In this document: piece by piece, positions 6,777-58,597 of the stretch
Layout of the letters: each line of letters starts with the position of its first letter
Numbering within the stretch: the first letter of the stretch is position 1
Assembly: GCA_021404905.1 (NCBI GenBank)
Contig: QWHN01000001.1
Span: 66,162-130,161 of the forward strand
Length of the DNA: 64,000 nt
Direction of reading: 5' to 3'
From: Candidatus Saccharibacteria bacterium CPR2
GTDB taxonomy: Bacteria > Patescibacteriota > Saccharimonadia > Saccharimonadales > QWHN01
Translations under genes and position numbers: made by a program
The notes under the pieces: model-generated
Told to the model about the DNA's origin: nothing
The model's database searches: none
Seen by the model: the letters and a program-made list of their open reading frames with translations, nothing else

Positions 6777-6780
6777 TCTT

Positions 6781-10499: not shown

Positions 10500-10575
<76 letters not shown>

Positions 10576-15597: not shown

Positions 15598-15701
15598 ATT
15601 TCTAATAGTTTATGCCTATTCATAACTTTTTTAAGTGTAACATTAAAGACCCAAGCTAACTGCCTGGGTCTTTATTTTATATTAACTAGTTTGGTGTCTG
15701 A

Positions 15702-15899: not shown

Positions 15900-16114
15900 T
15901 TCTCCTCCTTACTTTATATCTTGCGTATCCCCAACATACGCTGAAGGCACATCTCTTGTCAACTCTAATTTTCTCTAAATACAGATCAAACATTTGCCCT
16001 ACTACTGTTTATTAAGTGAAATGGATTACAATAATATAAGAGAAAAAACATAAGCCTATTGCTCTAAAAGCCAGCTTACGATACACTAAATTTTAGTTTG
16101 AATAAGGGGGTTAA

Positions 16115-41601: not shown

Positions 41602-43053
41602 ATGAAAGACGAAATTCAAAAAGCATGGTTACAGTTAAAAGCTGTGGGAAAATTATCAAACATTATTAGAAACCACGGCTATGATGCATACATAATTGGC
41701 GGCGCCGTGCGTGATATATTACTCGGACATTTACCAAAAGATTTTGACATCGTAACTAATGCCAAGCCAGAAGAAATTGAAAAATTGCCGGGGCTTAAAA
41801 AATCAAAATTTAAAGATACGGCTCAAGCTTTTGGCGTAACCAGAGTAGTGCTGGAGATGTCGGATAACGGCACTTCACAAGACGTTGATATTGAGGTGTC
41901 GACATATAGAAAAGATGTTGAATCACACTTAGGACGCCAGTTAACAAAAGTTGAATTTTCTACTTTAGAGGACGATGTAGGGCGACGCGACTTAACAATC
42001 AACGCATTAGCCCTAGATCCAAATACAAATCAACTTATAGATTTGGTTGATGGAGTTAAGGATTTGGGAACCAAAACTATAAGATTTATAGGCGACCCTT
42101 TAAGCAGAATTCAAGAGGACCCTTTGCGCATTCTAAGAGCAATCCGCTTAAAAAATCAACTCGGGTTTCATTATGACAACCAAACAGAGTCAGATATCCA
42201 TAGAGCTGTAAAACAGGGTTTTGTAAAACAAATAGTAAGCGATCGGATTCAAACAGAATTAACGAGAATGTTGGTGCATCGCAATAGAATCTCAGCAATT
42301 TCGGATCTGGATTATTTTGGCATTATTAATGAAATAGTTCCAGAGTTACTTAATATGAAAGGTGTTCCCCAACCAAGTGAGTTTCATATGGAAGGAGACG
42401 TTTGGGAACATACTTTACTTGCTTTGCAACACTTGCCGGGCAAAGTAAGCTCCAGGCTGGTCTGGGCAGTATTGTTGCACGACATTGGAAAACCGGAAAC
42501 AATTGAAACTTCAGAAAAAACCGGAGATAGAATCCGGTTCAATAAGCACTATCTGGTTGGCGCGAAAATCGCGGAGCAAATACTAAAGAGACTGCATTTT
42601 AGCAACAAATTTATTAATGATGTGTACTGGATGATTGACAATCACATGGGCATAGATATGCTGCCAAGAATGAAACCATCGAAACAAAAGGCTTTTCTGT
42701 CTCACGGTGCTTTCTTAGACCTGTTTGAACTTCACAAAGCCGATGCGTACGCAGCCTGGAATAAACACAAAGATGGAACAATCGAAGTAGCCGAGCCAGA
42801 ATTTAATGAACTGGATGAATTATGGAAAAATTATTCGCAAAAAAACCATCGCGCGTCTTTGGATCTAAAAAATGATTTAGGCATTGATGGAGACTGGATA
42901 ATGCGACACTTCGGCATAAAGCCCGGTAAAAAATTGGGTGAAATTTTAAGTAAAGCAAATGACGCGTATATTGATGGAGATGTTGTAGACGAAAAAGAAT
43001 GCGAAGAATTTGTTGAAAAATTGCTAACCGTTCCAGTTACTAAGCATGATTGA
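41602..43053 (+). CDS. cca: CCA-adding tRNA nucleotidyltransferase with HD domain
   Basis: GGAVRDILLG..DFDIVT, RRDLTINALA and a C-terminal HD (LLHDIGK) region. Confidence 0.85.
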   Translation: MKDEIQKAWLQLKAVGKLSNIIRNHGYDAYIIGGAVRDILLGHLPKDFDIVTNAKPEEIEKLPGLKKSKFKDTAQAFGVTRVVLEMSDNGTSQDVDIEVSTYRKDVESHLGRQLTKVEFSTLEDDVGRRDLTINALALDPNTNQLIDLVDGVKDLGTKTIRFIGDPLSRIQEDPLRILRAIRLKNQLGFHYDNQTESDIHRAVKQGFVKQIVSDRIQTELTRMLVHRNRISAISDLDYFGIINEIVPELLNMKGVPQPSEFHMEGDVWEHTLLALQHLPGKVSSRLVWAVLLHDIGKPETIETSEKTGDRIRFNKHYLVGAKIAEQILKRLHFSNKFINDVYWMIDNHMGIDMLPRMKPSKQKAFLSHGAFLDLFELHKADAYAAWNKHKDGTIEVAEPEFNELDELWKNYSQKNHRASLDLKNDLGIDGDWIMRHFGIKPGKKLGEILSKANDAYIDGDVVDEKECEEFVEKLLTVPVTKHD

Positions 43054-45555
43054 AAGATCGAATACGTTGACTGTACCGTCTTTATTTATGTCCGAAGTAG
43101 TATCACTGGAGTTCCACTTTGAAAGCAGTATGGATAGATCAAAAATATCTACTTTCTCATCGCTATTCAGGTCTCCAGAGATAGACGCCGGTGTATTGTC
43201 GATGGTTACGACGATGAAAGCACTAACCCGCATATTACCAGCAGCGTCATACGCTCGAGCTGTTAGATTGTAATTGCCATTCTCGATTGTTGCTGAATTC
43301 CAAGTTGTAAAGTAGGGTGACCGGCTAACTTCCGCCACCTTGACATTACCAAGCCAGAATTCAACGAGAACTACACCTACATTATCACTAGCTTCGGCAA
43401 TCAAATCGGTTTGACCAAATATAGTTTCTCCTGATGATGGCGAGACTATGCTTACGCTCGGCTTGGCTGTATCTGGTAGCGGCGGTGATACTACTGGCAT
43501 TGAAACAATTGGTCCCGCGTCGCCGGACGCAGTTTTCACTCCTTGTTGGTCTACATATCTAGCCCTGACTCTGAAATCATAAGATTGGTTATTGGTGAGA
43601 CCATCTACAACCAACGACTTATTCGTGGTTGGGGTAGACCACATCCAACTATCACTGGTTTGGGACCTGTAACTTACCATGTATTCAACGGGTAGCGTGT
43701 TCCGACTATCGTTCCAGGTAAGCGAAACCTGCCCATCGCCCGGAGTAGCACTAAAATCCGAAGGCGCATATATTGTCGGAGCGGGGGCGGATCCGTCTGT
43801 CCTTCCTACATGAACCCCGTTTCCATTTAGAGCCGTGTACAAATAATTATCCGAGGAACTCGCAAGTCCGAACGGAAAAGCATCTCCCCCCCTATAATAG
43901 TCATCAGCAACATCAGTAGCGGTTGTCGCTGCCGGTAGATCAACTTTATACATTCTAGCGCTTAACGCTGATGTCCCCAGACCACATGCATACAGAGCGT
44001 CATTTGTAAGTGTTATCGGACCCGGGTTTAAGGCTCCGGTAATTTTTGTTGGGCTAAGGTTGGATGCTGTATGCGCATTGTCGACTTTGTATAATCCATT
44101 TTGACTGGAAATAAACAATCTACCAACGGTATTTGGGTCGGCAATTACGTATCCAGTCATCTCATTCATGCTACTTTGGCTCCATATTCTAACCCAAGAA
44201 GCTCCGTAGTCATTTGATCGATATACACCCTTGGCAGGATCAAATGCATAAACGTATTGAGACCCTGGTACCCACGAGAATCTTCCAGTTTTCGCGACTC
44301 TAGCAGTATTGAATGCGTCACCACTGGCTTTTTGCCATGCACCATTACCAACTTTACGCCAAATTCCTGCACCGCTTAGTGCTCCGTTTTGATCCTGAGA
44401 GTCATAAGCGACAGCTGCTAATATTACACGATTATTAGACGCTTCTTGACCAACAGCCACTCCAACTGCTCTATTGCCATTAGTGCTAGCCAAACTCAAA
44501 CCTTCATCCACCCATGAGCCTCCACTGGTTGGGTTCTGGATAGATAAAACCTCTCCGCTTTGATTCTTATCCCTATGACCACCAGCTAAATAAACAGTAG
44601 ATGGATTCGTGGAAGCATCAACAGCTATATCATATCCAGTATTAAATACGCCAGGATTTTTAATATCAACGTTTTGCATATTATCCGTCGAATATAAGAA
44701 AACCCAGTCAGTATTTGCTACGAACACAGCCCCGGGATTGTTTGGATCGGTCGCGATTGCCCTGTTTATCGTCACCCCAAGCCCTTGAACAGTCGGATAC
44801 CAATTCACCCCACCATCCGTTGACCTCCATACTCCAGATCTGCCCGCAACATAGATATTATTACTATCGTTAGGATCAATTGCGATCTGGGCAGCAACAA
44901 AATAATTGCCCCCTACCATCACGCCTCTATTGTGCTCTGAAAGCAACCAAGTTGAATTAGTCCCAGCAACCTCATAATGGATATTACTTCTATTGGAAGT
45001 CAGGGACTGCCAACTACTCCCACCATTAGTTGATTTCATGAGATTGATCCCATCGCCATTCATCTCCGGTTCGAACACTGCACCGATTATTAGCACATGA
45101 TTTTGCCCATTCGCGTATCCGTCGATCGATTCCCATCTTGCCACGGTGGTATTCACTCCACTATTTATCGCCTGCCAACTACTCCCACCATTAGTTGATT
45201 TAAAAATTCCCGCCCGCCCAGCGACAATATAAACAGTGCTATCAATAATCTTTATTTCCTCGACTATAGATGGAGCACTAGAAAGCTTACTAAACGAACC
45301 TTGGCCTCTAGCATTTGTTGTCTTCCATATGCCATCGTTATATGTCCCGACATAAAGCACATCTGGATTAGCCGGATCCATCGCGATTGATCTTAAATAC
45401 TTGCCCTTAATACTTGGGTCGAGATACGTCCACGTTGCTCCACCATTGGTCGATTTCATCACCCCATCATAAAAAGTCGCGACATAAATGATATTATTTG
45501 TTTCATCTAAGGCGATTAAGTTGCCTGTGGATCTGGGATGCTCACTGTTACTCAC
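43024..45555 (-). pseudogene. C-terminal fragment of an interrupted BNR/Asp-box (Sortilin-Vps10/GH74-like) beta-propeller + FN3 + Ig-like + dockerin surface protein
   Basis: No signal peptide. It begins at a GTG inside a repeat unit. Asp-boxes STNGGATW, STNGGSSW (x2), STDGGVNW and SNDYGASW. Dockerin GDLNSDEKVDIFDLSILLSKW..SDINKDGTVNVFDLSIMLSNWNG. The matching N-terminal fragment is at 55943..56494. Confidence 0.7.
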
Positions 45556-45613
45556 GACATTATTATTGCCTCCCTATTGTAATGCGAGTCAGAACTGCAA
45601 TTATAGGTGAAGG

Positions 45614-46120
45614 TTAATTCTGTTCCTCGGGATATGTACTCATTATGGCGAAAATATCGGAAATTAACCTTAATGGAGTATTACTGATGGTGTGTAGTGA
45701 ATAACCTTGAATTCGCTTAATGTCTGCCTTTGTTATTACGCCTGGACTACTATAGATAATTAAAGGTATCTGCTTAGACTTAAGGGTATCGAAAAGTTTA
45801 CCAAATGAATCTCCTGTTGGCTCGTATGCTAAAACTATCAATCTATACTCATTATCAATCAGGTCTGCACTTCTAGAGTCTGCTGCCTTTAAGTCGACAT
45901 CAAAGAAGCCAGTATTCCTAATTAGGAGTGTTTCGTGAGCCATATCAGTACTTGCTGAAGGTACAATCGCTACTGGTCTTTTAATGTTCTTGAACAGTCG
46001 TTTTTCCTTCTTGCGGAAAAACTTTAGATAAACAAAGAAACCAACCAGCCACACTATGACTGGCCACACAAAAACAAGTAGTGTTATTAAATCTGCTGAT
46101 GTTCCAAGGTCTACTGACAT
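45614..46120 (-). CDS. small membrane protein: N-terminal TM segment + ~120-aa alpha/beta domain of unknown family (candidate effector)
   Basis: ATG 46120 (MSVDLGTSADLITLLVFVWPVIVWLVGFFVYLKFF..) with TAGGAG 6 nt upstream. It lies 8 nt after the NTase stop and is the last gene of the operon. Confidence 0.6.
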   Translation of the reverse strand: MSVDLGTSADLITLLVFVWPVIVWLVGFFVYLKFFRKKEKRLFKNIKRPVAIVPSASTDMAHETLLIRNTGFFDVDLKAADSRSADLIDNEYRLIVLAYEPTGDSFGKLFDTLKSKQIPLIIYSSPGVITKADIKRIQGYSLHTISNTPLRLISDIFAIMSTYPEEQN

Positions 46121-46128
46121 AAATACTC

Positions 46129-46890
46129 CTACCATATTATCTGATTCCAGCTGCCTGCTCGCAAGCATTCCGCTGCTTTATTAGCTATCAAACGCTTTTC
46201 ATCTTGAGTTAACTCGTTAGCAACATTGTTGCTTGCGTTTCCAGGATCGATAAGCTGAGTGGTATGAATTGTATTTTGAAGTGAGTCTAAAACAACGATC
46301 ATATTATTTGCGGTCGTATAACGATTGTGGCCACTTAAAGCATTAATTGTAAAAATCTCAAGAGGAAATGAAGGAAATTCCAACCTGTGTCGATGACGCC
46401 AAATTTTTAACAGTCGTATCTCATCGTGTCTATTACTTCCATTGATATGGCTAATATGTCTGTCGATGTTGGTTTTTTTCCAGGTGTTTTGTTTGCGGCT
46501 GTAAATGCTGTGGTCAGTAGTTGCGGAACCTTGCTTACGACCAGGAACCAAATCTACCTTGATGCCATTTAGATTAACGCCTATAGATACATTCTGCTTT
46601 GTTACTTGATATCCGCGCTCCCTTAGGTAGTCGTATAAGTTTTGGTATACACGAGCCAATGGCCATTCTGAAGCATTAAGACTTGGGCTTAGTGAAATAA
46701 ATAGATCAACATCAGTGGATAATCGAACTGCTGTGCCTTTCGCAAATGAACCTGAAGGTTTAATTTCAAGTAGGTACCCGTTTGCCCATTCACGGATCAC
46801 GGGAGATAGTGTCTGTATCGCTGTCACCAAAGCTATTGAGCTGGGCGCCTGAGCAGTGATTACGGACCGTAGGTAGGTGTCATTGTCCAC
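46129..46890 (-). CDS. OAS/cGAS/CD-NTase-like (SMODS-type) nucleotidyltransferase
   Basis: GSFAKGTAVRLSTDVDLFIS (G-S-x11-D-x-D), IKVDLVPG, WKKTNIDRH and LLKIWRHRHRLEFPSFPLEIFT. A likely GTG start at 46890 lies 1 nt after the hsdMS stop. The track start is TTG 46935. Confidence 0.65.
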   Translation of the reverse strand: MDNDTYLRSVITAQAPSSIALVTAIQTLSPVIREWANGYLLEIKPSGSFAKGTAVRLSTDVDLFISLSPSLNASEWPLARVYQNLYDYLRERGYQVTKQNVSIGVNLNGIKVDLVPGRKQGSATTDHSIYSRKQNTWKKTNIDRHISHINGSNRHDEIRLLKIWRHRHRLEFPSFPLEIFTINALSGHNRYTTANNMIVVLDSLQNTIHTTQLIDPGNASNNVANELTQDEKRLIANKAAECLRAGSWNQIIW

Positions 46891-46891
46891 A

Positions 46892-49342
46892 TCAACCCCA
46901 TATATCCGCAATTCTATTTTGGGTCTTCTGCTCAAATTTGTGGATTAGTTTTCGATTTAAGTTCAGGATTGTCCGCTCTTCCAAAATCGACTTAATTATC
47001 TCCTTTTGCACCCCGACTGGTGGGAGGGGTATTTCTAATTCAGCGACTCTTTGTAAGCCTAGTTTTGGAACGCCCACTCCAGCAGTTAGTCTTCTAATTT
47101 GAGATTGAATAGTGGGTTCCTGTAGGACTATGGCGAGATAATCTTTGTCTATTGTATCGTTGCGGATAACTAGTTTTGCGGCATTTTCAGTTAAATAGGA
47201 TCCGTCCAGATCAGGCGGAACGACTCCCGTTTTTCCGATGGTCCCTGCTATTGATATGTATACATCATTTGAGCTAATGGTATATCTTTCAATTTCTTTA
47301 CGAACGTCATCGTCGATAAATTTAATGCTAGTTTTGTCAATACCGCCTTCGTTCATATCAACAACTCTAATGTATGGGTATTTGGTAGGTTCATCGGAAA
47401 ATGATTTACCTTTCGGAATTCGTTTTCCACCTTTAATATCTACTAACTCAGACAGTCTAATTACCTCCCACTCTGGGTTAATAGGTAAGCTCGGTGTCCA
47501 ATTATCAATTGCTTGCTGAGCACCTTCAATAACTTTTCTGTATGAACTAAGTTCGTCAGCTATCTCTTTTTGGATATCAATAGTAGGGAGAGGGATTTTG
47601 AAGGGTTTAAGATCTTCTGTTTTCATTGAGACATTGGCCGCGCCGCGCATTAATTTGGCAAGATCATCCTTCACAGATGATAAGATCCAGTAAAGATACC
47701 TGCCATCAAGATCGTCACCTGGTATTACAGCTGCCAACAAGTTTGCGAGTGCAAATTTTCCTTTGAAATAATGAACTCTTTTTATGCTTGCGTGGCCGTG
47801 GCCTGTTGCCGAAATGAGCGGAATACATACTGCTTCTGCATCAAAATCAAAATGTGTAGAAGTTTTAAACTCTTGGGCAGTTAGAATTAAGGGATAATCA
47901 CCTGCTTCTGTTTTTGTGCTCGAAGACTTGCCTTTTTCAATTCTTGCAACGTCACCCAAACTAATTAGGGGGTATTCAGAATCCAAGGGCGCTACGGACA
48001 AATACTTATTACCCACCAGGGAGATATCATCAGAAGTTAGAACTGAGTCTTTCGAGACCTTATGTGCTAGTTTGCACGTAATGTGATTATTAGGTTCTTG
48101 TTGAAATTCTTTTATCACCTTCAATGCATCAATGAGGTCATTTTCCTTAATTGGCTTTCTCACCGCTCCAAGTGAAACCCCTACTTGTTTTACTTCTGTA
48201 AATAGTATATCGGTGCTGCGTTTTGCGAGTTCCTTGTCTAGAAATATAATCGAGGTCTTTACTCCAGAGTATGGGAGAAATACTCCGGAAGGTAGTGAGA
48301 CGACCGCATAAAGATAATTCTCAACCAACATCTTCCTGAGTTGCTTATATGCGTTACCAGATTGGAAAATGATTCCCTCTGGTACGATCACACCCGCTCG
48401 ACCACTTGTAGATAAGTGCTCGGCAATATAATCAGTAAACAGGACCTCTGCACGATTTGCTTGAACACCAAAACGCTTATGGGGACGAATACCACCCTTT
48501 GGAGTCATAAACGGTGGATTTGCTAAGATAACATCGAAACTATCATCCCAGCGATCGTCGCTAGTTAAAGAGTCGTATTCATAAATATGCGGTTGTGGAA
48601 AGCCGTGCAAGTACATATTGACTCTTGATAGTTTTACCATATCAGGCGAGATGTCATAGCCAACAATACTATTAGCTAGTCGCTTTCGTTCGTCAGGGGT
48701 TAGCCTTGTTTCATCGTTGGGTTTACCACTTTCGTCCTTACCATCGTGAGAGTTAAGGATGTGCTTGTAAGCTGAAATTAAGAACCCTGCCGTACCACAC
48801 GCTGGGTCGAGTATTCGATCAGTCTTTTTTGGGTCAACTACTGAAACGATGAAATCAATGATGTGGCGTGGCGTACGGAACTGCCCAGCATCACCTTGAC
48901 TACCAAGTACGGATAACAGGTACTCAAATGAGTTGCCCAACTCTTCACTATGATGATAAGTAAATTCGTTGATTTGCTTTAGGAACAAACTTAGAGTCTC
49001 GGGGTCACGATAAGGCAGATATGCGTCCTTAAATATATCTCGGAATAATTGTGGTATGTGCGGATTTTGAGAGAGTTTTGAAACCGCTTCTACATAGAGA
49101 TCAAGGCGCTCCAAACCGCCAAGCTTTGGATCCATTAACTTTGACCAAGAATACTTTTCGTAACCGTTATTGAAGAACTGTGGCTTACCCCCAAGTTCAA
49201 TAGCTTCTTGATCCATATCGTCCATAAATTTGTAGATAAGGGCGTTAGTGATCTGATCAACCTGTGCCTTAGGGTCTGGAACTTTGCCTACAAGAATGTC
49301 TCTGGCGGAATCGATTTTTCGTTTAATATCAGTCGTCAGCAT
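46892..49342 (-). CDS. hsdM: Type I R-M fused methyltransferase-specificity subunit (HsdM N-terminal ~440 aa + two-TRD HsdS)
   Basis: LDPACGTAGFL (motif I) and ILANPPFMTPKGG (motif IV, N6-adenine). These are followed by TRD1 (ISLGDVARIEKGKS..), a central conserved helix (LPTIDIQKEIADELSSYRKVIEGAQQAIDNW), TRD2 (IRLSELVDIKGGKR..) and a distal helix (LPPVGVQKEIIKSILEE..). Confidence 0.85.
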   Translation of the reverse strand: MLTTDIKRKIDSARDILVGKVPDPKAQVDQITNALIYKFMDDMDQEAIELGGKPQFFNNGYEKYSWSKLMDPKLGGLERLDLYVEAVSKLSQNPHIPQLFRDIFKDAYLPYRDPETLSLFLKQINEFTYHHSEELGNSFEYLLSVLGSQGDAGQFRTPRHIIDFIVSVVDPKKTDRILDPACGTAGFLISAYKHILNSHDGKDESGKPNDETRLTPDERKRLANSIVGYDISPDMVKLSRVNMYLHGFPQPHIYEYDSLTSDDRWDDSFDVILANPPFMTPKGGIRPHKRFGVQANRAEVLFTDYIAEHLSTSGRAGVIVPEGIIFQSGNAYKQLRKMLVENYLYAVVSLPSGVFLPYSGVKTSIIFLDKELAKRSTDILFTEVKQVGVSLGAVRKPIKENDLIDALKVIKEFQQEPNNHITCKLAHKVSKDSVLTSDDISLVGNKYLSVAPLDSEYPLISLGDVARIEKGKSSSTKTEAGDYPLILTAQEFKTSTHFDFDAEAVCIPLISATGHGHASIKRVHYFKGKFALANLLAAVIPGDDLDGRYLYWILSSVKDDLAKLMRGAANVSMKTEDLKPFKIPLPTIDIQKEIADELSSYRKVIEGAQQAIDNWTPSLPINPEWEVIRLSELVDIKGGKRIPKGKSFSDEPTKYPYIRVVDMNEGGIDKTSIKFIDDDVRKEIERYTISSNDVYISIAGTIGKTGVVPPDLDGSYLTENAAKLVIRNDTIDKDYLAIVLQEPTIQSQIRRLTAGVGVPKLGLQRVAELEIPLPPVGVQKEIIKSILEERTILNLNRKLIHKFEQKTQNRIADIWG

Positions 49343-49344
49343 AT

Positions 49345-51864
49345 TTATTCCATAAATGAATTAATTGATACATAGTCCTTAACATACTCGGGTACTTTTT
49401 CCCGATAACCATTCAGTGCCTTGAATTCCTCAAAAGTGAGCTTAGGGTTGGTATGCAAACGGGCGAATTCCTTGCTTTCAACAATCTCTCGTATTTCAGG
49501 GTCTGTTACATAAGCCTTGAAATAGTGTTTCGTGACTTGTAAGTGATCATTGTCTGGCTTTTCGATAGTTACAAATTTCTCAAATTCCTCATCTAGGAGC
49601 TCGTCCTTTGACTTAAATTTAGGAATATTTCCGAATGCTTTATCAATCATCTCTCGAAGCGAAACACGTCGATCTGATTTAATAGACTTGCGTAGTTTAT
49701 CAAGGTTAAAGTAGTCGTCAGGTTTATCAAATTTCTCGCTACGAACATAATCTTCGGCTGCCTCAGGGCTAATATTTTCGTACAAATGTTTTACTTGAGG
49801 ATCGGCTTGTATCGCTTGCTCAAACTTCTCATATAGCTTCCAATCTACTTTCATACCCTCAACACCTACTTGTGTTTCAGACATAGTCTTCAGCGGATCG
49901 AGTTTCGCTAGGTCAATTTCTTCAGGCATAGCACCAGGCCCGCCAGTTTTTCCCCCAGAGTTTTCAATAGGTAGTTTAAGAACTTCATCATAGTTGAATT
50001 TGTCTTCGAAGTATTCGCAGTTAGCAAAGAAGTCGAATAGCTTGAATTGCTCTTTTTCAACTTCAACAATTTCTTTCTCGCCGTATTCCGCCTGACGATA
50101 TTTGAATGAATTCTTGCGAGTACCCCGACCTTTAATCTGAACAAAATCGGTTGGTGAGAATATCGGTCGAAGCATTGCAAGGTTAAGTAGATCAGGGCAG
50201 TCATAGCCAGTGGTCATCATACCAACAGTTACACAGACACGAGTTTTTGAGGATTTGTAACCTTCGATAAACTTTGTGTGGCCATTCAAATTGTTATTTG
50301 TGAAATTAGTTGTAAAAGTTTGTGCATCTTTTATGTTCGAAGTCACCTGTACTGCAAAGTCAGAATTGTACTTGCCTGGGAACATTTGATCTGCAAATTG
50401 ATTTAAGATTTGAGTAATCTTACTTGCGTGAGGTTGACTAACTGCAAACACTATTGATTTGCCTATCTCGCCGCTTATAGGGTCACGTAAGGCATTTTCA
50501 ATAAAGGTTTTGCAGAAAATATAGTTTGTTTTTTCGTTATAGAACTTGCGTTCAAAATCAGTTTGAAAATATGTTTGTACTTCTTCGACTCCGTCGTCAC
50601 CTTCAACTATCACAGAGTAACCTTTATCTGACAATAGCTGAGTGGTGATTTCTGTCCTCGCGTCGACCACCACAGGATTAATAAGGTAGCCATCCTTTAC
50701 ACCATCTACAAGGCTGTACCTATATGTCGGATCTCCGCTTTCGCAACCGAATGTTTTGTAAGTGTCTAGCAATTGTCGACGTTCCCACGAACGCTGGTCT
50801 TTATCGTTAATTTCTTCTTTATCGAGATTCTTAAGATAGTCTTTTGGCGTTGCGGTGAGGCCCAATTTGTATCCAACAAAGTATTCAAAAACTGCGCGAC
50901 TATTCCCGCTTATAGAGCGGTGAGCTTCATCAGAAATAATCAGATCAAAGTCAGTTGGCGAGAAAAAGTCACGGTATTTATTATTTGAAGCTAACGTCTG
51001 CACGGTGCTGACCACAATTTCAGCTTTCCGCCAGTCGTCACGATTTCGTTTGAATATCACACTTACAAAATCGTTCTTAAGTATCTCTGTGAATGATTTC
51101 TCGGCTTGTTCCTCAAGTTCTATGCGGTCAACCAAAAAAAGTACACGCTTTGCGTTGCCTGATTTTAAGAATAACCTGATTACGGCCGCTGTAGTCAGGG
51201 TTTTGCCTGTTCCTGTTGCCATTTCGAAGAGGTATCTAGTTTTGTCGTTTCTAGCAGCCTTCTGAAGCGCCTGAACGGCTTTTACTTGGTAGGGGCGAAG
51301 GAATTTAAGCTTACGGTCATCAATCAAAGAATGTCTTAAGTTTTCATCTGACCAACGGGGATCTTTTTTGTAGTCTGGGTATTGGGTGAGTACGACATAG
51401 TCTTCATTAATCTCAATCTCGCTTAACTTTTTAGGGTCTGGCTTAAATTTCTTGTGTTCTGCTAGTGAGCTTTGTGAAGGAAATTGGCTAATTACCTCTG
51501 GATTACCTTGTTCGAGGTCCCAGAAGTAATGTAAATCACCATTAGAGAGAATTACAAAACGAGATCCTTGACTTAAGGCATATCGGCGAGCTTGTTCTTT
51601 ACCGTCTAGTGGATTTTTGCCTGATTTCTTTGCTTCAAGGACAACTATTGGGAATCCCTTGTTATCAAGTAATAAATAATCAACGAAGCCATTGTGTGTT
51701 TTTTCAAAATCTTCACCTAGGTCGTCAAGTTTATCAGTAGTAAGCTTCACATTTGGCTCAAGCTGTATGTTAGCTTGGCCTTCGTCTGTATCAAAAAAAC
51801 GCCAGCCTGAATCCTGTAATAGGTTGTTAATTTTGATTCTTGCTGATGCTTCTTTTGTAGACAT
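49345..51864 (-). CDS. hsdR: Type I restriction enzyme R subunit (EcoAI/EcoEI-size class)
   Basis: N-terminal PD-(D/E)xK region (FVDYLLLD..VVLEAKKS), MATGTGKT, SDEAHRS (DEAH), LGLTATP, QIKGRGTR and a C-terminal helical domain. Confidence 0.9.
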   Translation of the reverse strand: MSTKEASARIKINNLLQDSGWRFFDTDEGQANIQLEPNVKLTTDKLDDLGEDFEKTHNGFVDYLLLDNKGFPIVVLEAKKSGKNPLDGKEQARRYALSQGSRFVILSNGDLHYFWDLEQGNPEVISQFPSQSSLAEHKKFKPDPKKLSEIEINEDYVVLTQYPDYKKDPRWSDENLRHSLIDDRKLKFLRPYQVKAVQALQKAARNDKTRYLFEMATGTGKTLTTAAVIRLFLKSGNAKRVLFLVDRIELEEQAEKSFTEILKNDFVSVIFKRNRDDWRKAEIVVSTVQTLASNNKYRDFFSPTDFDLIISDEAHRSISGNSRAVFEYFVGYKLGLTATPKDYLKNLDKEEINDKDQRSWERRQLLDTYKTFGCESGDPTYRYSLVDGVKDGYLINPVVVDARTEITTQLLSDKGYSVIVEGDDGVEEVQTYFQTDFERKFYNEKTNYIFCKTFIENALRDPISGEIGKSIVFAVSQPHASKITQILNQFADQMFPGKYNSDFAVQVTSNIKDAQTFTTNFTNNNLNGHTKFIEGYKSSKTRVCVTVGMMTTGYDCPDLLNLAMLRPIFSPTDFVQIKGRGTRKNSFKYRQAEYGEKEIVEVEKEQFKLFDFFANCEYFEDKFNYDEVLKLPIENSGGKTGGPGAMPEEIDLAKLDPLKTMSETQVGVEGMKVDWKLYEKFEQAIQADPQVKHLYENISPEAAEDYVRSEKFDKPDDYFNLDKLRKSIKSDRRVSLREMIDKAFGNIPKFKSKDELLDEEFEKFVTIEKPDNDHLQVTKHYFKAYVTDPEIREIVESKEFARLHTNPKLTFEEFKALNGYREKVPEYVKDYVSINSFME

Positions 51865-52013
51865 ATATATTTACATTTTCATAGTATTTGCCAAATTATT
51901 ATTTGATATTGCAAATTACATATTTGATTATAACGGTAATCACAAGAATTCTCGATGTTAAAAATGAAGAATTTGATGATTATGGTCATCCTTTATGAAC
52001 TATAATAAAAGTT

Positions 52014-52391
52014 ATGAGTACTAAAGGGCGAAAATTATGGGATGGTAAAAGCCAGGATATTGTTATCCCGAAACTCGAAGCAGCATTTGCCGTGGATGCA
52101 ACCGTTACCGAAGCCTGTTTTTACGCAGATATTAGTACATCTTCGTATTATCGGTTTGTTGAGAAAAACTCCCAATTTCGGGACAGATTTGCACAACTTC
52201 GGAATAAGCCAGTTTTATTAGCACGCCAAACTGTGGTAAATGCTCTGAAAACCGATCCTCATCTAGCATTCAGGTATCTTGAGAAGAAGCGAAAACTAGA
52301 GTTTGGAAAAACGGTACAGATTGAACGACAAACTACCGAATACGAAAAATTATCTGACCAGCAGCTACACGAACTAATTTTTGGGAAGTAG
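52014..52391 (+). CDS. HTH protein (phage terminase-small-subunit/phBC6A51-like HTH)
   Basis: ..VTEACFYADISTSSYYRFVEKNSQFRDRF.. pattern, in an element context. Confidence 0.5.
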   Translation: MSTKGRKLWDGKSQDIVIPKLEAAFAVDATVTEACFYADISTSSYYRFVEKNSQFRDRFAQLRNKPVLLARQTVVNALKTDPHLAFRYLEKKRKLEFGKTVQIERQTTEYEKLSDQQLHELIFGK

Positions 52392-52595
52392 CTTTTCTGG
52401 TTTTAACTGCAAAGCCTTGGCAAGCTTGTACATAGTTGTAAGGGTTGGATTACGTTCACCCCTCTCGATACCACCTATATAAGTACGGTCAAGGCCGGCA
52501 TTATCTGCAAGCTCAGATTTATTTAAACCAAGAAATTCTCTTCTTTTTTGAACCTGTTTTCCAAAGTTGATTAATAATTTACTGTTTTCTCTCAT
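52374..52595 (-). CDS. XRE-family (cI/Cro-like) HTH transcriptional regulator
   Basis: LGLNKSELADNAGLDRTYIGGIERGERNPTLTTMYKLAKAL. Confidence 0.85.
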   Translation of the reverse strand: MRENSKLLINFGKQVQKRREFLGLNKSELADNAGLDRTYIGGIERGERNPTLTTMYKLAKALQLKPEKLLPKN

Positions 52596-52640
52596 AACCT
52601 ATAATGTATAACAAGTGGTGACTATAGACCACACAAAATA

Positions 52641-53228
52641 ATGAATATGAATAGTCAAGATAAGCATTTTACTAGTCGCTCGGCTCGATCGAGGCAAAAA
52701 AGAGAAGTCTTACTAGCGAGACCCGATTTTATTCGTGATACAAAAGATTTACACGAACGAAAACTCTCCAAAGAACAGCTTGAAAAAGAAGTAATTGTGC
52801 TTATTGAGAAGTATAAGTTGGGACCAAGTTGGATTTTTGGGCTAGTTGAATATATTGACCGTCTTGACCCGACATATCTTATAAGACTTCCTCGTCCAGC
52901 AGTTGAAATCCGTACTAATAAAGAAACTGGGATAAATGAGCTTTGGATCAGGATTAATGAAGATACTACGCTTGAAGACATCAAACAACGCTGGTCTTTC
53001 ATAAAGTGGTATCAAGAAAAACTGGACTATACCAAACAAAAGAAGTTTCAGCCTAACGATAAAGCCGTGCTAGAACGAAATAAATTTGTCTATGAACTAC
53101 GAGAAAATGGCTTAAGCCACCAACAGATTGCAGACAAATTAAATGATAAATACCCCGACGAAGTCTTTGTCTACAGCGATATTGCAACAATGCTACGTAA
53201 CTACAAGCGACAAACAGGCATTAATTAA
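52641..53228 (+). CDS. hypothetical protein with C-terminal HTH-like segment
   Basis: ..ENGLSHQQIADKLNDKY.. at the C-terminus. Divergent from the XRE gene. Confidence 0.5.
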   Translation: MNMNSQDKHFTSRSARSRQKREVLLARPDFIRDTKDLHERKLSKEQLEKEVIVLIEKYKLGPSWIFGLVEYIDRLDPTYLIRLPRPAVEIRTNKETGINELWIRINEDTTLEDIKQRWSFIKWYQEKLDYTKQKKFQPNDKAVLERNKFVYELRENGLSHQQIADKLNDKYPDEVFVYSDIATMLRNYKRQTGIN

Positions 53229-53237
53229 GCTTAATTC

Positions 53238-53537
53238 TTGCCTTATACGGGCGGACAGATACTTGAGAAGATAGTCTCGGTATCTGCTATGAGAATTAAT
53301 TATTACGATCAATATTCAGCAAATGATCTAGCACTTGTTTCTGTGCTTATCTACTTAGGTTTTGCCGTTGAGCGAGTTGAAAAAGACGTCAAAGGCAAGG
53401 CTACTTTCTACTTTTATCGTAATTCTGAGCTTGATCAAGCGGTCCAAGAATACTGGTCTGGAGATATTTCCGTTGAGCCAAGATCCTATTTTGATGCCAT
53501 TAAGCGAACAAAAACAAGGATCTATTCGGAGACGTGA
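53238..53537 (+). CDS. hypothetical protein (DUF5659-like pattern); start TTG 53238 or ATG 53289
   Basis: ..LALVSVLIYLGFAVERVEKDVKGKATFYFYRNSELDQAVQEYW... Confidence 0.45.
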   Translation: MPYTGGQILEKIVSVSAMRINYYDQYSANDLALVSVLIYLGFAVERVEKDVKGKATFYFYRNSELDQAVQEYWSGDISVEPRSYFDAIKRTKTRIYSET

Positions 53538-53719
53538 TGCAACTTACCCAGAACCAAATCCGAAAATTCCAGTCTATTTACAAAGAGCATTTTTCTATTG
53601 ATTTGTCAGACGAAGAAGCAATAGAAAAGGGCTCACAACTCGTGAAAATTTTGCGAAAGGTTTATAAGCCAATCCCCAAAAATGAAGATGAGAATAATAA
53701 TGAACCAGCGATTACTTGA
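53534..53719 (+). CDS. small hypothetical protein
   Basis: 61 aa with a 4-nt ATGA overlap on the upstream ORF. Confidence 0.4.
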   Translation: MMQLTQNQIRKFQSIYKEHFSIDLSDEEAIEKGSQLVKILRKVYKPIPKNEDENNNEPAIT

Positions 53720-54062
53720 TTATTCTGATATATCCGCAGATGTCTACAGTTATACCGAAGCTAAAGGTATTTACTGGGTCAAAATTACTTGGGGTGGCAG
53801 TGGTATGTACATCACAAGCTTCACTGTGCGCCACTCAAAACACGAGGATCAAAAATGGTGGGTTCAGCCTCCTAAGTACCCACCACACTGGAAGTCGCCA
53901 CTGGAGTTCACGAAAACTAGTGAACTTTGGTCATTGCTTGAGCGACTTTGTATACAAGCGGTCGAGCGTTACAGCCCTGAATTAGTAGTCACCGACATCG
54001 ACGACAACTTTGATATGAAGAAGGCTCTTGACGAGGTATGGCCAGATACAAACCCACCCTAA
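53682..54062 (+). CDS. hypothetical protein
   Basis: 126-aa ORF (alternative start MNQRLL.. at 53700). No motif recognised. Confidence 0.45.
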   Translation: MKMRIIMNQRLLDYSDISADVYSYTEAKGIYWVKITWGGSGMYITSFTVRHSKHEDQKWWVQPPKYPPHWKSPLEFTKTSELWSLLERLCIQAVERYSPELVVTDIDDNFDMKKALDEVWPDTNPP

Positions 54063-54165
54063 CCTATATAGATATCTATATAGATAATCTATCTTTTTAG
54101 ATTATCTATCTACATTGGTCTTCTAAGCTAAATAGATTTAATGAACCACTAATAAGGAGTTAATA

Positions 54166-54414
54166 ATGGATAAGAGATTAATAGAGTTACCAAAAACAGT
54201 CTTCACAATTACCTACTTCGATCCTTCAAGTAATCACGATGATGATTGTGTTATTGGTGTATACCTAACTGAAAAAAGTGCTAATGAACACTGGTTATCA
54301 CTGAATACTAATCCAGAAAAACCGGAGTTCATAAGTTACTTTATCGAAGAAGTTCAATTGCACTTAGAACCTGCCATAGATGACTCCAGCCGTAAAAGTA
54401 AGTATGATAAATGA
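54166..54414 (+). CDS. hypothetical protein
   Basis: 82 aa with AAGGAG 7 nt upstream of the ATG. Immediately upstream of the recombinase. Confidence 0.5.
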   Translation: MDKRLIELPKTVFTITYFDPSSNHDDDCVIGVYLTEKSANEHWLSLNTNPEKPEFISYFIEEVQLHLEPAIDDSSRKSKYDK

Positions 54415-54441
54415 TGACTATAGTCAACAAAGGAGAATGAT

Positions 54442-56043
54442 ATGAAATATTTTGTTTACATAAGAAAATCAACCGAAGACGAAGAAAAACAAGTTCTCTC
54501 GCTTGAAACACAGATGGATAAAGCTAAGGAAATGTTTGGTCACCTTGACCTAATATTTCTTGAGCCAGAGTCGGCAAGTGCCTTTAAACCGTACAATCGC
54601 CCTATCTTTGCAGATATGATCAAGCGAATTGAGAATGGTGAAGCACAAGGCATTATTGCCTGGCACCCTGACCGTGTTTCTCGTAATGAGATTGACGCTG
54701 CACAGGTGACATATATGATCCGTACTGGCAAAATACAGGATTTGAAGTTTGGTTCATACAATTTTGATAACTCACCAGAGGGCATAATGATGCTCCAAAT
54801 GGTTATGTCTCAGTCCCAATACTTCTCAGCAAAGTTGAGTAAAGACGTAAAGCGTGGACTTGAGAAAAAGATCAAAATGGGCTGGAAGCCAGGAGTTGTT
54901 AAGGCTGGTTATCTCAATAACCCTGGTATGGAAAAAGGATCTCGGATTGTCAGCGAAGATCCGGTGAGGTATCGCCAAGTTAGGAAAATGTGGGATTTGC
55001 TTCTAACGGGTGCTTACACAGTTCCCCAAATTCAGGATATAGCTAACAATGAATGGGGATTTCGCTCAGTAAAACGAAAGAAAATTGGCGGTGGTCCGAT
55101 AGCTCGCAGTACACTTTACGCGTTGTTTACCGATCCCTTCTACGCAGGTCAATTATTCCATAAAGGTGAATATTATAAGGGTAGTCACAAGGCGATGATT
55201 ACGCTCGATGAGTTTGATCGAGCCCAGATGATCTTGGGTAGAAAAGGTAAACCTCGTCCACAGAAACACCGCTTTGCGTTTACTGGATTTATTCGTTGTG
55301 GCGATTGTGGTTGTTCAATTACTGCAGAGCCCAAACTCAAAGTCCTTAAGAGTACTGGTGAGACTAAGAAATATGTTTACTATCACTGCACTTGGAAGCG
55401 ACCTTGCAATCAACGCAAGGTTATAACTGAGGCAGAGCTAGAAAAACAGATTGAAGCCGAACTATCCAAGATCACTATAATCCCTGAATTTAAGGATTGG
55501 GCACTCGATGTTCTGAATAGCTCAAGCGACGAAGAGATTGAAAATAGGACTATTCTTCACAAGCAGCAAACCAGCACAATGTTAGCCATCCAAAAGCAAC
55601 TTGATAACTTGATCCAGATGTATACTCGGGAGCTTATTGACGATCAAGAATATACCAAGCAGCGTAGCGAACTGCAAGGGCAGAAAGTCAAGATCCAGGA
55701 AAAGCTGCGTAAAACAGAAGATCGTGCTGACGAATGGCTAGAACTGGCCGAAAAAGTATTCGACTTTGCAGTCCACGCACGACATAACTTTGTACACGGT
55801 GATCTAAACGCTAAAAAGGAGATATTTGTAGCACTAGGAAACAACCCAATACTAATGGACGGTCAGCTTACGATTGAGTTAAATGAATGGTTCAAACCAA
55901 TAGCTGAAAATAGTGAAAAACTAGCTACTGATTTTGAGCTGGTCAGAACCGACAAAAAAGACCCCCAAAACGGAGGTCAGTTTTTGCAATCCAATCAGGA
56001 TTTATTTTCTTGGCTCCGGAAAATGATGGCGTCGGATTCGTGA
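54442..56043 (+). CDS. large serine recombinase (integrase)
   Basis: YIRKSTEDEEKQVLSLETQ catalytic-Ser resolvase domain, a recombinase domain, a CGDCGCSITAE..YYHCTW zinc ribbon and a long coiled coil. AAGGAG SD. Confidence 0.9.
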   Translation: MKYFVYIRKSTEDEEKQVLSLETQMDKAKEMFGHLDLIFLEPESASAFKPYNRPIFADMIKRIENGEAQGIIAWHPDRVSRNEIDAAQVTYMIRTGKIQDLKFGSYNFDNSPEGIMMLQMVMSQSQYFSAKLSKDVKRGLEKKIKMGWKPGVVKAGYLNNPGMEKGSRIVSEDPVRYRQVRKMWDLLLTGAYTVPQIQDIANNEWGFRSVKRKKIGGGPIARSTLYALFTDPFYAGQLFHKGEYYKGSHKAMITLDEFDRAQMILGRKGKPRPQKHRFAFTGFIRCGDCGCSITAEPKLKVLKSTGETKKYVYYHCTWKRPCNQRKVITEAELEKQIEAELSKITIIPEFKDWALDVLNSSSDEEIENRTILHKQQTSTMLAIQKQLDNLIQMYTRELIDDQEYTKQRSELQGQKVKIQEKLRKTEDRADEWLELAEKVFDFAVHARHNFVHGDLNAKKEIFVALGNNPILMDGQLTIELNEWFKPIAENSEKLATDFELVRTDKKDPQNGGQFLQSNQDLFSWLRKMMASDS

Positions 56044-56494
56044 TTGAAGTTGGTCGCCAAGTATTGCCACTGTCGGTAGAAACAAACAAATCGCCCCAAC
56101 CACCAGTTGTATTGGTTGTGCCGCCAATTGCCGCATATACTTTCCCGGATGTATTTTTTGAATGGGTTATAGATGCTATTTTTAAATAACCTTGATTACT
56201 AAACCCTTCGCCTTGATTTACAGGAACCCATTTATCTCCTTGGTTTGTGGATTTGTGTATGCCCGCTACATCAGCCCCTACAAGAAGTTCATTAGTGCTG
56301 TTGGGGTTTATGGAAATTACATTCTGAAATCCAGCCCCGTGAAGCCCACTCTGAGAGAAACTAAGATTAATCGAATCTGTGCCAGCTGAGCTTTTTATTA
56401 TGAGATAGCCTGTAACCGACATCGATCCCGCAAAAGCAAGCGCAAATAAAAAATTTACTGCACTGTTCTTATTTATACGAATCTTACTAAACAT
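55943..56494 (-). pseudogene. N-terminal fragment of the interrupted BNR/dockerin surface protein (signal anchor + 2 Asp-box repeats); last ~15-25 codons are read-through into element DNA
   Basis: AVNFLFALAFAGSMSVTGYLII signal anchor, then STNQGDKW and STDSGNTW. The tail ..KKINPDWIAKTDLRFGGLFCRF* is antisense to the recombinase 3' end. Confidence 0.7.
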
Positions 56495-56641: not shown

Positions 56642-57019
56642 ATGGCTAAATGTAATGTACTGATAGTTGAAGATGATGAAAGCCTGAGAAAATCCTTGGA
56701 GGAAAAGCTCACACACGAAGGCTTTGAGGTCGTCAGTGTAGTGAATGGAAACGAAGCGTTTGATGCCGCAAAAACATATAAGCCGCAACTTATTCTGTTA
56801 GACATAATTTTACCAACTAAATCTGGCTGGGAAGTTTTGCAAAACTTAAAGGGCAATGACACTACAAAATCAATTCCAGTGTTAATAATTAGCAATTTTG
56901 GATCTGAAACGTCCAAAGAGCAGGCGGCAAATGCGGGAGCGGAAGATTTTATTCTTAAGAGTAACGTCGGTCTTGGAGACTTGGTCTCTAAAGTAAAAGA
57001 AAAGCTTAGTCGCAAGTAA
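56642..57019 (+). CDS. stand-alone response regulator receiver (CheY-like), paralog 1
   Basis: VLIVEDDESL.., phospho-acceptor LLDIILP, and ..ISNFG..KS. No output domain. Confidence 0.9.
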   Translation: MAKCNVLIVEDDESLRKSLEEKLTHEGFEVVSVVNGNEAFDAAKTYKPQLILLDIILPTKSGWEVLQNLKGNDTTKSIPVLIISNFGSETSKEQAANAGAEDFILKSNVGLGDLVSKVKEKLSRK

Positions 57020-57082: not shown

Positions 57083-57502
57083 ATGGCACATCAACCGCAT
57101 GTATTTATCGTTGAAGATGATTTGGCATTAAGATTAACTCTCGAAGAAAAACTCAAGAGCAGTGGTTTTGAGGTTACTTCAACGGGAAAAGGCAGTGAAG
57201 CAGCAATGATTGCTGAAAAAGTTCTGCCTGATGTGATAATACTCGATATAATTTTGCCAAATAAATCCGGTTGGGAGATCCTGAAAGAATTTAAAGGCAG
57301 TAAATCAACGAAAGATATACCCGTCATAATAGTTAGTAATTTTGGAACTGAATCATCGGCTATGCAGGCTAAAGAGGCTGGCGCGATTGAATTTATTATG
57401 AAAAGCAATATTAGTTTGGAAGATCTTTTGGAGCGCATTAAGCAAGCAATACATGCCAGTAAATCATCTGTAAAAGAAATAAAAAATAGCTCGAGTACAT
57501 GA
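57083..57502 (+). CDS. stand-alone response regulator receiver (CheY-like), paralog 2
   Basis: VFIVEDDLAL.., ILDIILP, and ..VSNFG..KS. Collinear with paralog 1. Confidence 0.9.
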   Translation: MAHQPHVFIVEDDLALRLTLEEKLKSSGFEVTSTGKGSEAAMIAEKVLPDVIILDIILPNKSGWEILKEFKGSKSTKDIPVIIVSNFGTESSAMQAKEAGAIEFIMKSNISLEDLLERIKQAIHASKSSVKEIKNSSST

Positions 57503-57527: not shown

Positions 57528-58586
57528 TTGGTGCGGTGGGACATGAAAAACTATAAAAATAATCACATTCTTTCAAGAGCCTTCTTTTATATATTTCTGG
57601 TTATATTTATATTCATAGTTTTTTATTTTTCCTTAAACTCCAGTTATTACATTAATTTTAATCAATACAATATACTACTCGCCTTCTCTACTTTTATCCC
57701 GTTATTAATAGGTGTTTTTTCGCTGGCACAATATTTTGCAACTAAAGATGACCAGTTATTGGTACTGGGAAGCGGCTTTATAATCGTATTTTTCTTAGAA
57801 ATAATTCATTTTTTAATTTACGGGGATCCCAATTCCAATATCAGACAAGTTGCACTTGGGTCTCCAAGCCAATGGACTAATGTATTTTCTAGTTTGTTCC
57901 TGCCATTGATGGTTATTTACGGGTGGTGGGTGTGGCACAGGGAGCATCGTTTTAACAAAAAAGGTCTTTTCGCACCGCCAAAAATAATTATTTCTATTAC
58001 ATCAATAGGAGTAATTTTATGGTTAACTTTAATAGTCTTCCCCATTTTTCAACTATCCTTTTACAGATATAGCGACGGCAATTATCTTCATCTTATAAAC
58101 GCTTTTCTGATATTTATTTCAATAATATTAATATTCATAAAAAAAGAGTGGGCAAACTTAAGTTTGGACAAGTGGATATTAGCAGGTTTGATTATGATGT
58201 TTTTCGCTCAAATATTATTCTTTAGTAATTCGTTAGTGCAGTTTGACGCCTTATTTAGTGCTGGCTACACAATAAAAATTGTTTCCTACATGATGTTTAT
58301 GATTGGGCTAATTATTAATATGCATCAGACCATAAAAAGTGCTGAGGAAAATAGACAAATTTTAGAAAAAGAAAATATTGAGCTTAGAAATACCCGGGAA
58401 ACCTCGATAGTTTTAAAGATTATGGCTGAAAAAAATAAACGCAATATTGAAAAGGCTTTGGAAGAGACGCAAAAAAGTAAGAAGGAGCTTGAGCAAATGA
58501 ACGAGATTATGGTGGACCGAGAACTTAAAATGATGGAACTTAAAAGTGAAATTACAAAATTAAAGAAAGCACAAGGTCTAAAGTAA
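57528..58586 (+). CDS. polytopic (about 7-8 TM) sensor-like membrane protein with C-terminal coiled coil, no kinase domain
   Basis: MASE-like hydrophobic core followed by ..EQMNEIMVDRELKMMELKSEITKLKKAQG. Confidence 0.6.
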   Translation: MVRWDMKNYKNNHILSRAFFYIFLVIFIFIVFYFSLNSSYYINFNQYNILLAFSTFIPLLIGVFSLAQYFATKDDQLLVLGSGFIIVFFLEIIHFLIYGDPNSNIRQVALGSPSQWTNVFSSLFLPLMVIYGWWVWHREHRFNKKGLFAPPKIIISITSIGVILWLTLIVFPIFQLSFYRYSDGNYLHLINAFLIFISIILIFIKKEWANLSLDKWILAGLIMMFFAQILFFSNSLVQFDALFSAGYTIKIVSYMMFMIGLIINMHQTIKSAEENRQILEKENIELRNTRETSIVLKIMAEKNKRNIEKALEETQKSKKELEQMNEIMVDRELKMMELKSEITKLKKAQGLK

Positions 58587-58597
58587 CATAATTTCCC

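Follow-up and report, generated by a model that had tools for sequence, protein, structure and literature searches.

Why should a mobile element whose relatives lie at the ends of tRNA genes be found inside a gene for a surface protein? The question is raised by a 64,000-nucleotide stretch of contig QWHN01000001.1 (positions 66,162 to 130,161; Candidatus Saccharibacteria bacterium CPR2), referred to here as the window, in whose coordinates positions are given unless a related locus is named. Within it, a single GH74-like gene encoding BNR, FN3, Ig and dockerin domains is split in two by ~10,440 bp of element DNA, which carries a large serine recombinase (LSR) at one edge. The segment 45574..56013 is probably an integrated, LSR-driven defence island from a tRNA-targeting family of Patescibacteria that landed at a look-alike site in this gene. 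Gene-splitting serine-integrase elements are well known and the split itself is ordinary; the main interest lies in the LSR family behind it, of which we found no description in the literature.

A GH74-like gene split in two and its in-frame join

The two gene fragments lie on one strand and in the right order, as the original prediction had it. The open reading frame (ORF) at 55943..56494 (- strand; 183 aa) encodes the signal anchor and Asp-boxes ascribed to it. Its host part, 56494..56014 (-), supplies the first propeller blades together with the signal anchor and stops with ..PSFSG at the junction core; the final 23 codons of the ORF (AKKINPDW...CRF), which reach 55943, are element-encoded and antisense to LSR coding DNA. 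The second fragment, ORF 43024..45555 (-; 843 aa), has no leader, and the BNR, FN3, Ig-like and dockerin domains expected in it were borne out by matches to Sortilin-Vps10/BNR, fn3, Big_7 and Dockerin_1. Its frame is open 5' of the GTG start up to 45573 (GGNNNVV...), where it is closed by an element-derived TAG (45576-45574). The host 3' part (GGNNNVVSNSEHPRSTGNL...) accordingly spans 45573..43024 (-), with the rest of the propeller blades, FN3, Big_7 and dockerin and no signal peptide.

Both junctions contain CTCC (+ strand 45570-45573 and 56014-56017), in equal codon phase. The element consists of 45574..56013, 10,440 bp, plus one 4-bp core, and these cores replace the wider bounds of 45540-56060 first proposed. 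On the gene strand the 5' side reads ...TTTTCC GGAG CCAAGAAAAT.... and the 3' side ...ACAATAG GGAG GCAATAATAATGTCGTG...., with GGAG in matching codon phase at 56017..56014 and 45573..45570. The right junction (P'-core-B; 56011..56017, +) is the 7-mer TGGCTCC, which encodes LSR residues Trp524-Leu525 and includes the core 56014-56017; its opposite strand, TCCGGAGCCA, is the same as the tRNA-Asn 3' end of relatives described below. The left junction (B'-core-P; 45567..45573, +) is TGCCTCC, one position off the right 7-mer, with its core at 45570-45573. The absence of long flanking direct repeats was correctly called: only TG[G/C]CTCC (6/7, the identical part being CTCC) is shared in register, and the longest direct match near the junctions is an 11-mer that is out of register.

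When the flanks were joined in silico at CTCC/GGAG, a 3027-nt ORF of 1008 aa was obtained whose sole stop is terminal, in agreement with the ~1000-aa protein that excision had been expected to rebuild. The rebuilt junction, ..PSFSG|GNNNVVSNSEHPRSTGNL.. (..FSG|GNNNVVSNSEHPRSTGN...), agrees at FSGGNNNVVSNSEHPRSTGNL with 59 aligned homologs, and in the 60-sequence alignment the rebuilt protein conforms to the family consensus over the junction, P-Q-F-S-G-G-N-N-(4-6 residues)-H-P-R-S-T-G-N-L. The original prediction had named one possible in-frame join, at an AG dinucleotide (..SGAK|HPRSTGN..), and left room for others. That join would delete the conserved GGNN...(L)P.. segment of all 59 aligned homologs, and the position at CTCC supersedes it. 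Single alignments with intact homologs (~40% identity) run through the junction and take in 94-98% of the joined query, and residues 9-165 of the GH74 xyloglucanase structure 4lgn align with query residues 46-210, again across it. These alignments show that the fragments are not two naturally separate genes, the case raised at the outset against an LSR-bounded element splitting one gene. The similarity to the GH74 structures 4lgn, 6p2m and 5fkr (E 3e-13 to 1e-11) concerns only the N-terminal part of the interrupted protein, and some of its homologs carry the source name 'xyloglucanase'.

The crossover is placed within CTCC, with CT, TC or CC as candidate dinucleotides, because the two 7-mers differ as TGG and TGC and because Trp524 (TGG), unchanged throughout the family, is also present in real attP. 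The sites reconstructed in silico are attB ...GACATTATTATTGCCTCCGGAAAATGATGGCG... and attP ...GGATTTATTTTCTTGGCTCCCTATTGTAATGCG.... A crossover at a shared CAA or AA, 5-8 nt off the core, was rejected: it would turn the attP Trp524 codon TGG into TGC or delete it, and the real attP of two relatives (L009 and L011) read TGGCTC. The best dyad centre in the reconstructed attP falls at that same AA, and a family-wide scan gave no dyad signal at either the core or the AA. Imperfect inverted half-sites had been suggested as something to look for around the crossover; dyad symmetry alone is too weak to place the centre.

In the integrated state no more than two products could come from the gene: an anchored stub of 160 aa that carries a junk tail of 23 aa, and a leaderless remainder. 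A terminator-like hairpin (GACCTCCGTTTTGGGGGTC then a T-run; 55960..55978, -) sits within the 3' coding end of the LSR, shortly downstream of the junction when the host-gene strand is read. Because the stub runs on into 23 junk codons that are followed by this element-borne terminator, and the remainder is leaderless, the insertion would have inactivated the secreted surface protein. Neither gene half, nor the LSR, nor either junction (with its displaced LSR tail) carries a lesion, which indicates an insertion that is recent or reversible. The element is probably still able to excise, and precise excision would, as modelled in silico, restore the gene, with no sign that excision is programmed.

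A recombinase whose frame crosses attP and its tRNA-targeting family

The LSR (533 aa; 54442..56043, +) contains Resolvase (PF00239, E 2.3e-16, residues 4-147), Recombinase (PF07508) and Zn_ribbon_recom (PF13408) domains and matches the integrase family phrog_95 (E 2e-64); its sequence match to the A118 integrase C-terminal domain structure 4kis is weak. In a 28-sequence family alignment S10, R8 and others fall in invariant columns, as do C286, C289, C316, C322 and W524; no invariant residue of the family is missing from the window LSR. The gene sits at the right edge with its frame running through the junction, as originally described. Its 3' end on the + strand reads ...TCT TGG CTC C|GG AAA ATG ATG GCG TCG GAT TCG TGA, in which the last 8 codons (residues 526-533, RKMMASDS) and the stop are host DNA past the crossover. 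The displaced native 3' end of the gene is found at the other junction, on the P arm (45574..45617, +), where the excised frame continues ..W-L-PIVMRVRTAIIGEG to a stop that overlaps the stop of the effector gene. Circularised in silico, the LSR has 539 aa and the tail ...S-W-L-P-I-V-M-R-V-R-T-A-I-I-G-E-G-stop. Integration has thus replaced one recombinase tail by another. The tail predicted for the excised form (WLPIVMRVRTAII..; WLPIVMRVRTAIIGEG; LPIVMRVRTAII) fits the pattern W-[LR]-x-[VI]-V-x-x-V-R-T-x-I, which is shared by at least 16 homolog clusters and which we call class (b). By belonging to this class, which includes circular relatives, the predicted tail validates the crossover and the element ends independently of the host gene.

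Relatives of the LSR number in the thousands, of which the best 120 clusters were listed; among those listed with a source name, all are from Patescibacteria save one metagenome-assembled genome (MAG) labelled Nitrososphaeraceae. Their tails fall into two classes. Class (a) tails, e.g. ..S-W-L-R-G-L-D-S-N-Q-R-P-I-D, result from translating the antisense strand of a tRNA 3' half. Two class (b) members, L009 (6154 nt) and L010 (8597 nt), are Logan contigs with exact 30-nt terminal overlaps and hence appear to be circular molecules. The cargo of L009 includes DUF559 and DUF4238 genes, and that of L010 SocA_Panacea, a Y-family polymerase (IMS) and an SRAP protein.

A profile scan of one genome per species yielded at least 542 related loci, of which the best 80 were kept and examined. 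An antisense tRNA overlaps or abuts the LSR stop in 64 of these 80 (Ser 20, Gln 12, Asn 10, Asp 5, Lys 5, Trp 5, Arg 4, Gly 1, Tyr 1, Thr 1); among the remainder, 4 reach the contig end and several others keep ..DSNPRP.. tails. The LSR tails of L059, L075 and L076 read ..DSNPRPIGYT.., encoded by DNA like a tRNA 3' half that is followed by an insertion, and ARAGORN calls no tRNA there. One study reports intron-containing tRNA-Asn and tRNA-Asp genes in Patescibacteria (PMC13011429), to which these ends may correspond.

Of the closest relatives whose DNA was inspected, L003, L004, L005/L013, L007, L012, L014 and L015 lie at tRNA-Asn and L016 at tRNA-Asp, and ARAGORN places tRNA-Asn(GTT) over the LSR 3' end in L003, L004, L005 and L007. 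At the far junction of the tRNA-Asn relatives (L004 position 3289, L005/L013 481, L014 914, L015 122), host DNA is followed by TGGCTCC and CCGTAGTGATGGAAGTTAGAAC...., which encode W-L-P-V-V-M-E-V-R-T, the native tail in its displaced position. This makes TGGCTCC, a 7-mer antisense to the tRNA end GGAGCCA, the canonical direct repeat, and the target tRNA remains intact after integration. An equivalent hairpin and T-run follow tRNA-Asn in these relatives, again within the LSR 3' coding region. In relatives the conserved P-arm motif TTAGAAC ends at +22 past the 7-mer and the tRNA motif TTCGAAC at +17, an offset of 5 bp; the window P arm has TCAGAAC at the corresponding +16..+22. In the LI (A118-family) serine integrase the zinc-ribbon motif likewise lies 5 bp further inward in attB than in attP (PMC3783163), and the site geometry of the relatives, judged from their DNA, appears to fit this serine-integrase model. 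No motif stands out clearly in the P' and B' arms.

The family places a core (XRE, a ~195-aa protein, DUF5659 and a ~60-aa protein) upstream of the LSR and adds variable cargo, an order to which the window element conforms. Its LSR ORF also crosses attP at Trp-Leu (TGGCTCC), with the native tail W-x-x-[VI]-V-x-x-V-R-T on the P arm. A sister island, L003, carries the same cargo and core at tRNA-Asn; identities are highest for HsdR (85%), followed by the cyclase (72%), orf61 (70%), LSR (68%), effector (67%), DUF5659 (64%), XRE (55%) and the fused HsdMS (54%). The window element is thus a member of the family by descent, at a non-canonical site.

Two of the tRNA-Asn loci show further features. 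In L004, TGGCTCC with the P arm occurs twice, at 2604 and 3289, 685 nt apart, and the outer copy is degenerate (WLP*CWKLEL); it appears to be the scar of an earlier island, which suggests serial or tandem integration at tRNA-Asn. The island of L005/L013, from a Saccharimonadales genome, measures ~11.1 kb by its junctions (481-11600) and carries housekeeping-like genes (Ham1-like, aldo-keto reductase), a 1059-aa helicase-PLD protein and an Ltp-like lipoprotein.

The tail exchange invites a further, rather doubtful idea. The LSR family might be made in two forms according to integration state, with the native tail ..W-L-x-V-V-x-x-V-R-T-x-I.. in the circle and, once integrated, a tail read from the antisense strand of the target gene, be it a tRNA gene or, as here, the GH74-like one. 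Such a swap could switch the activity, stability or directionality of the recombinase and, in the window, would be tied to a reversible on/off switch for the secreted dockerin protein. If this is true, serine integrases would have their own equivalent of integration-dependent immunity. As the conserved tail covers about one half-site, DNA-level constraint alone could explain its conservation.

Why this copy sits in a protein gene

The arrangement is probably best explained as follows. Islands of the family, which is widespread in Patescibacteria, occur both as circles of 6-9 kb and in integrated form, the usual site being the extreme 3' end of a tRNA gene (tRNA-Asn(GTT) for the closest relatives), and would integrate by recombination in the TGGCTCC core inside the 3' end of the LSR's own frame. 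The window copy would have recombined, with the crossover in CTCC, with the look-alike TCCGGAGGCA in the GH74-like secreted gene, leaving a signal-anchored 160-aa stub plus 23 junk codons, the element terminator and the leaderless 3' remainder. The pre-integration host site TCCGGAGGCA and the tRNA-Asn 3' end of relatives, TCCGGAGCCA, are alike at 9/10 positions; by our own calculation, 7/8 matches beyond the two obligatory identical bases have a chance probability of ~4e-4. The window LSR 3' end is antisense to no tRNA gene and runs into the GH74-like gene. As relatives normally insert at a tRNA gene end, the window copy looks off-target, and we infer a secondary event rather than a programmed switch.

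Several points weigh against this explanation. Core matches of at least 9/10 occur 4 times by chance in the 64-kb window (both strands), so core similarity alone does not explain the choice of site. The window host B arm has no TTCGAAC at the canonical spacing (2/7 positions), the LSR is just 68% identical to the nearest tRNA-Asn user, and its P arm has diverged. This copy occurs in one genome only, and a single genome makes a one-off secondary-site event indistinguishable from a retargeted lineage. The lesion-free gene halves and LSR fit a recent insertion and equally a maintained, reversible arrangement. The tRNAs of the source genome were seen within the window only, with no tRNA-Asn among them: three tRNA-Met(CAT) genes lie at 574-650 (-), 6669-6743 (+) and 10500-10575 (-), within 10 kb and far from the element.

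One candidate for a displaced recognition motif, the T-loop-like GGATTCG in the host B arm (56031-56037, +), lies 9 bp outward of the canonical position and is probably there by chance; it could have aided capture of the site.

The element might instead be a resident one that stays in the gene until defined conditions bring about its excision, for production of the GH74-like/dockerin protein, in the manner of active lysogeny or of skin and the fdxN element, with which the original prediction compared it. Such a switch would profit from what is seen at the locus, where excision at CTCC restores a perfect ORF, where no damage is seen in the gene halves, the LSR or either junction with the displaced LSR tail, and where the predicted hairpin would cleanly end the stub transcript. 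The terminator, however, is a family feature that also stands after tRNA-Asn in relatives and is not specific to this gene. The relatives are mobile and tRNA-targeting, as seen from the sister island at tRNA-Asn, the 64 of 80 loci that abut a tRNA and the two free circles, and a mobile family has therefore taken the place of the skin/fdxN analogy. The suggested occurrence of the segment in unrelated contexts, offered as a case against the original prediction, was nearly realised by these tRNA-borne relatives, and the split itself stands. No empty-site protein, excised LSR isoform or attB/attP DNA appeared in any collection searched: when JGI metagenomes and IMG/VR were searched for exact copies of the empty site, of the circle junction and of the P' arm, none was found, so the junctions that excision was predicted to leave were not recovered, and neither the rebuilt 1008-aa protein (Gly and Ala variants) nor the 539-aa LSR had an exact match in a collection of 15 billion proteins. 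Programmed excision of the skin type is thus unsupported for the window copy. Terminal differentiation is not known in Saccharibacteria, and on balance we consider such a switch quite improbable.

Retargeting of the integrase, whereby an LSR lineage evolved a genuine attB in the GH74-like gene, much as the A118 integrase uses comK, would make the insertion on-target and not regulatory. It is rather unlikely, although it accommodates an LSR at most 68% identical to those of tRNA-Asn users and a P arm, CTATTGTAATGCGAGTCAGAAC, that differs from the relatives' CCGTAGTGATGGAAGTTAGAAC; the clade has moved among at least 10 tRNA targets, which implies that integrase specificity evolves readily. By contrast, what the junction has kept as its core is identical to the 10-mer of the tRNA-Asn 3' end, the host B-arm motif scores 2/7 at the attB spacing, and a tail of the RKMMASDS type occurs in none of the 120 homolog clusters. 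The best homolog of the host gene is 44% identical, so that no conserved target population is visible. That the element was wrongly joined into the gene during assembly or binning is a negligible prospect, even though the source is a MAG and a Logan contig of the same locus (L002, from SRR7663065) breaks in the LSR gene. The left-junction arrangement (element, junction, 3' fragment) was assembled independently in the NCBI MAG record and in two Logan assemblies, SRR8954568 and SRR7663065, the exact LSR and 5'-fragment proteins that span the right junction are recorded in Logan, and both junctions share the family core in one codon phase, which a chimera would not give. L002 breaks off at LSR residue 198, away from either att junction, possibly because that metagenome contains a second, related recombinase. 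Integration at a look-alike site, the explanation we prefer, is taken up again in the comparison with known systems.

Cargo, neighbouring genes and known systems

The cargo anticipated between the gene halves (restriction-modification (R-M), an NTase module, XRE and small ORFs) was confirmed by Pfam and PADLOC matches. A type I R-M system occupies 46892..51864 (-; REase_I E 2e-59, MTase_I E 1e-92, and Specificity_I matches) and consists of HsdR (839 aa, ResIII/HSDR_N; 49345-51864, -) and a fused HsdM-HsdS (816 aa, N6_Mtase + Methylase_S; 46892-49342, -). The fusion recurs in the sister island (L003 2514-5030, 838 aa), and its 54% identity, low beside the 85% of HsdR, may reflect a diverged specificity (target-recognition) part. 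Next to it lies a minimal cyclic-oligonucleotide-based anti-phage signalling system (CBASS; 45614..46935, -; PADLOC, Pfam), with a CD-NTase/SMODS cyclase (46129-46935, -; PDLC00803 E 3.5e-83, Pfam SMODS) and a 184-aa effector with one transmembrane segment (45614-46168, -; PDLC01057 E 1.3e-17). From these matches the cargo is a type I R-M system plus a type I CBASS (cyclase + transmembrane effector), both predicted to act against phage.

The core module (52014..54414) begins with a small-terminase (TerS)-like ORF (52014-52391, +; weak match to phrog_4102, E 8.6e-10). It continues with an XRE helix-turn-helix gene (52374-52595, -), orf195 (52641-53228, +), DUF5659 (53238-53537, +) and orf61 (53534-53719, +), which by tblastn are common to 13, 10, 25 and 37 related loci, respectively, and closes with orf126 (53682-54062, +) and orf82 (54166-54414, +). 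No annotated family was found for orf61, orf82 or orf126 among the domain and phrog matches; the three are at most candidates for a recombination directionality factor in excision. A prophage was considered and rejected, as there are no capsid, tail or large-terminase genes and only the weak TerS-like match; the island may be a satellite (PICI-like) element.

The interrupted gene has neighbours of its own. A 502-aa cohesin-domain membrane protein is encoded two genes away, with the gene for a CCA-adding enzyme between (39999-41507, -, and 41602-43053, +), and next along in Logan contig L001 is a further dockerin protein of 212 aa (15538-16176). These genes point to a cohesin-dockerin assembly on the surface of a Saccharibacterium, of which the disrupted GH74-like protein is a likely component. 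Directly upstream, on the promoter side, two receiver-only response regulators lie in tandem, with a putative multi-pass membrane protein after them (56642-57019, 57083-57502 and 57528-60229, +); the same cluster includes a second large ORF that is PAS/histidine-kinase-like by eye.

More broadly, the family forms a large Patescibacteria clade of serine integrases that act at tRNA 3' ends via a 7-bp core in their own frame (>540 loci, with 64 of the 80 examined fitting). Being small (6-11 kb), circle-forming and laden with restriction, CBASS and toxin-antitoxin-type cargo, its islands offer a visible route for defence genes among ultra-small, hard-to-culture bacteria, and its integrases, being compact and having defined attP and attB, are candidates for use as genetic tools in Saccharibacteria and relatives. 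To this the window copy contributes a natural integration, probably at a look-alike site, that knocks out a surface protein.

The window element resembles A118/phi10403S (Listeria, comK), SPbeta (Bacillus, spsM), skin (B. subtilis SpoIVCA, sigK) and the fdxN element (Anabaena XisF) in having an LSR at one edge, in lying inside a protein gene with no long flanking repeats, and in that precise excision would restore the frame. Unlike these, it has no phage structural genes and gives no evidence of developmental or conditional excision, its relatives target tRNAs and form small circles, and the LSR frame itself crosses attP. The skin-type trait of a resident element tied to one gene is likewise absent, as relatives are found at tRNA-Asn, at nine other tRNAs and as circles, with no other copy in a GH74-like gene.

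The tRNA 3'-end niche is usually filled by tyrosine integrases. Of 937 Prochlorococcus elements of the tycheposon type, 910 use tyrosine recombinases (bioRxiv 10.1101/2020.12.28.424599). The family shares with tycheposon- and PICI-like islands its small size, its position at tRNA 3' ends, the pairing of an integration module with variable and often defensive cargo, terS-like genes in some, and tandem remnants at the same tRNA (L004). It differs from tycheposons in its LSR, in a 7-bp shared core instead of a long tRNA duplication and in its Patescibacteria hosts, and the window copy differs further in not lying at a tRNA.

Cases in which attP lies in coding sequence and integration alters a C-terminus include Mx8 intP, the SSV1-type integrases and the integration-dependent immunity of mycobacteriophages (for example BPs). 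As in these, integration swaps the tail of an element protein, here a native tail of at least 14 aa in the circle for 8 host-encoded residues. Those proteins are tyrosine integrases or repressors, whereas here the protein is an LSR and an effect of the swap is putative. Serine integrases also integrate at pseudo-attB sites, as phiC31 does at its pseudo-sites. The window insertion is similar to these in that resemblance to the canonical site is concentrated round the crossover (9/10) while the arms diverge; it differs from them in having taken place in a natural genome, not a heterologous host, and its probable status as a secondary site is read from its relatives.

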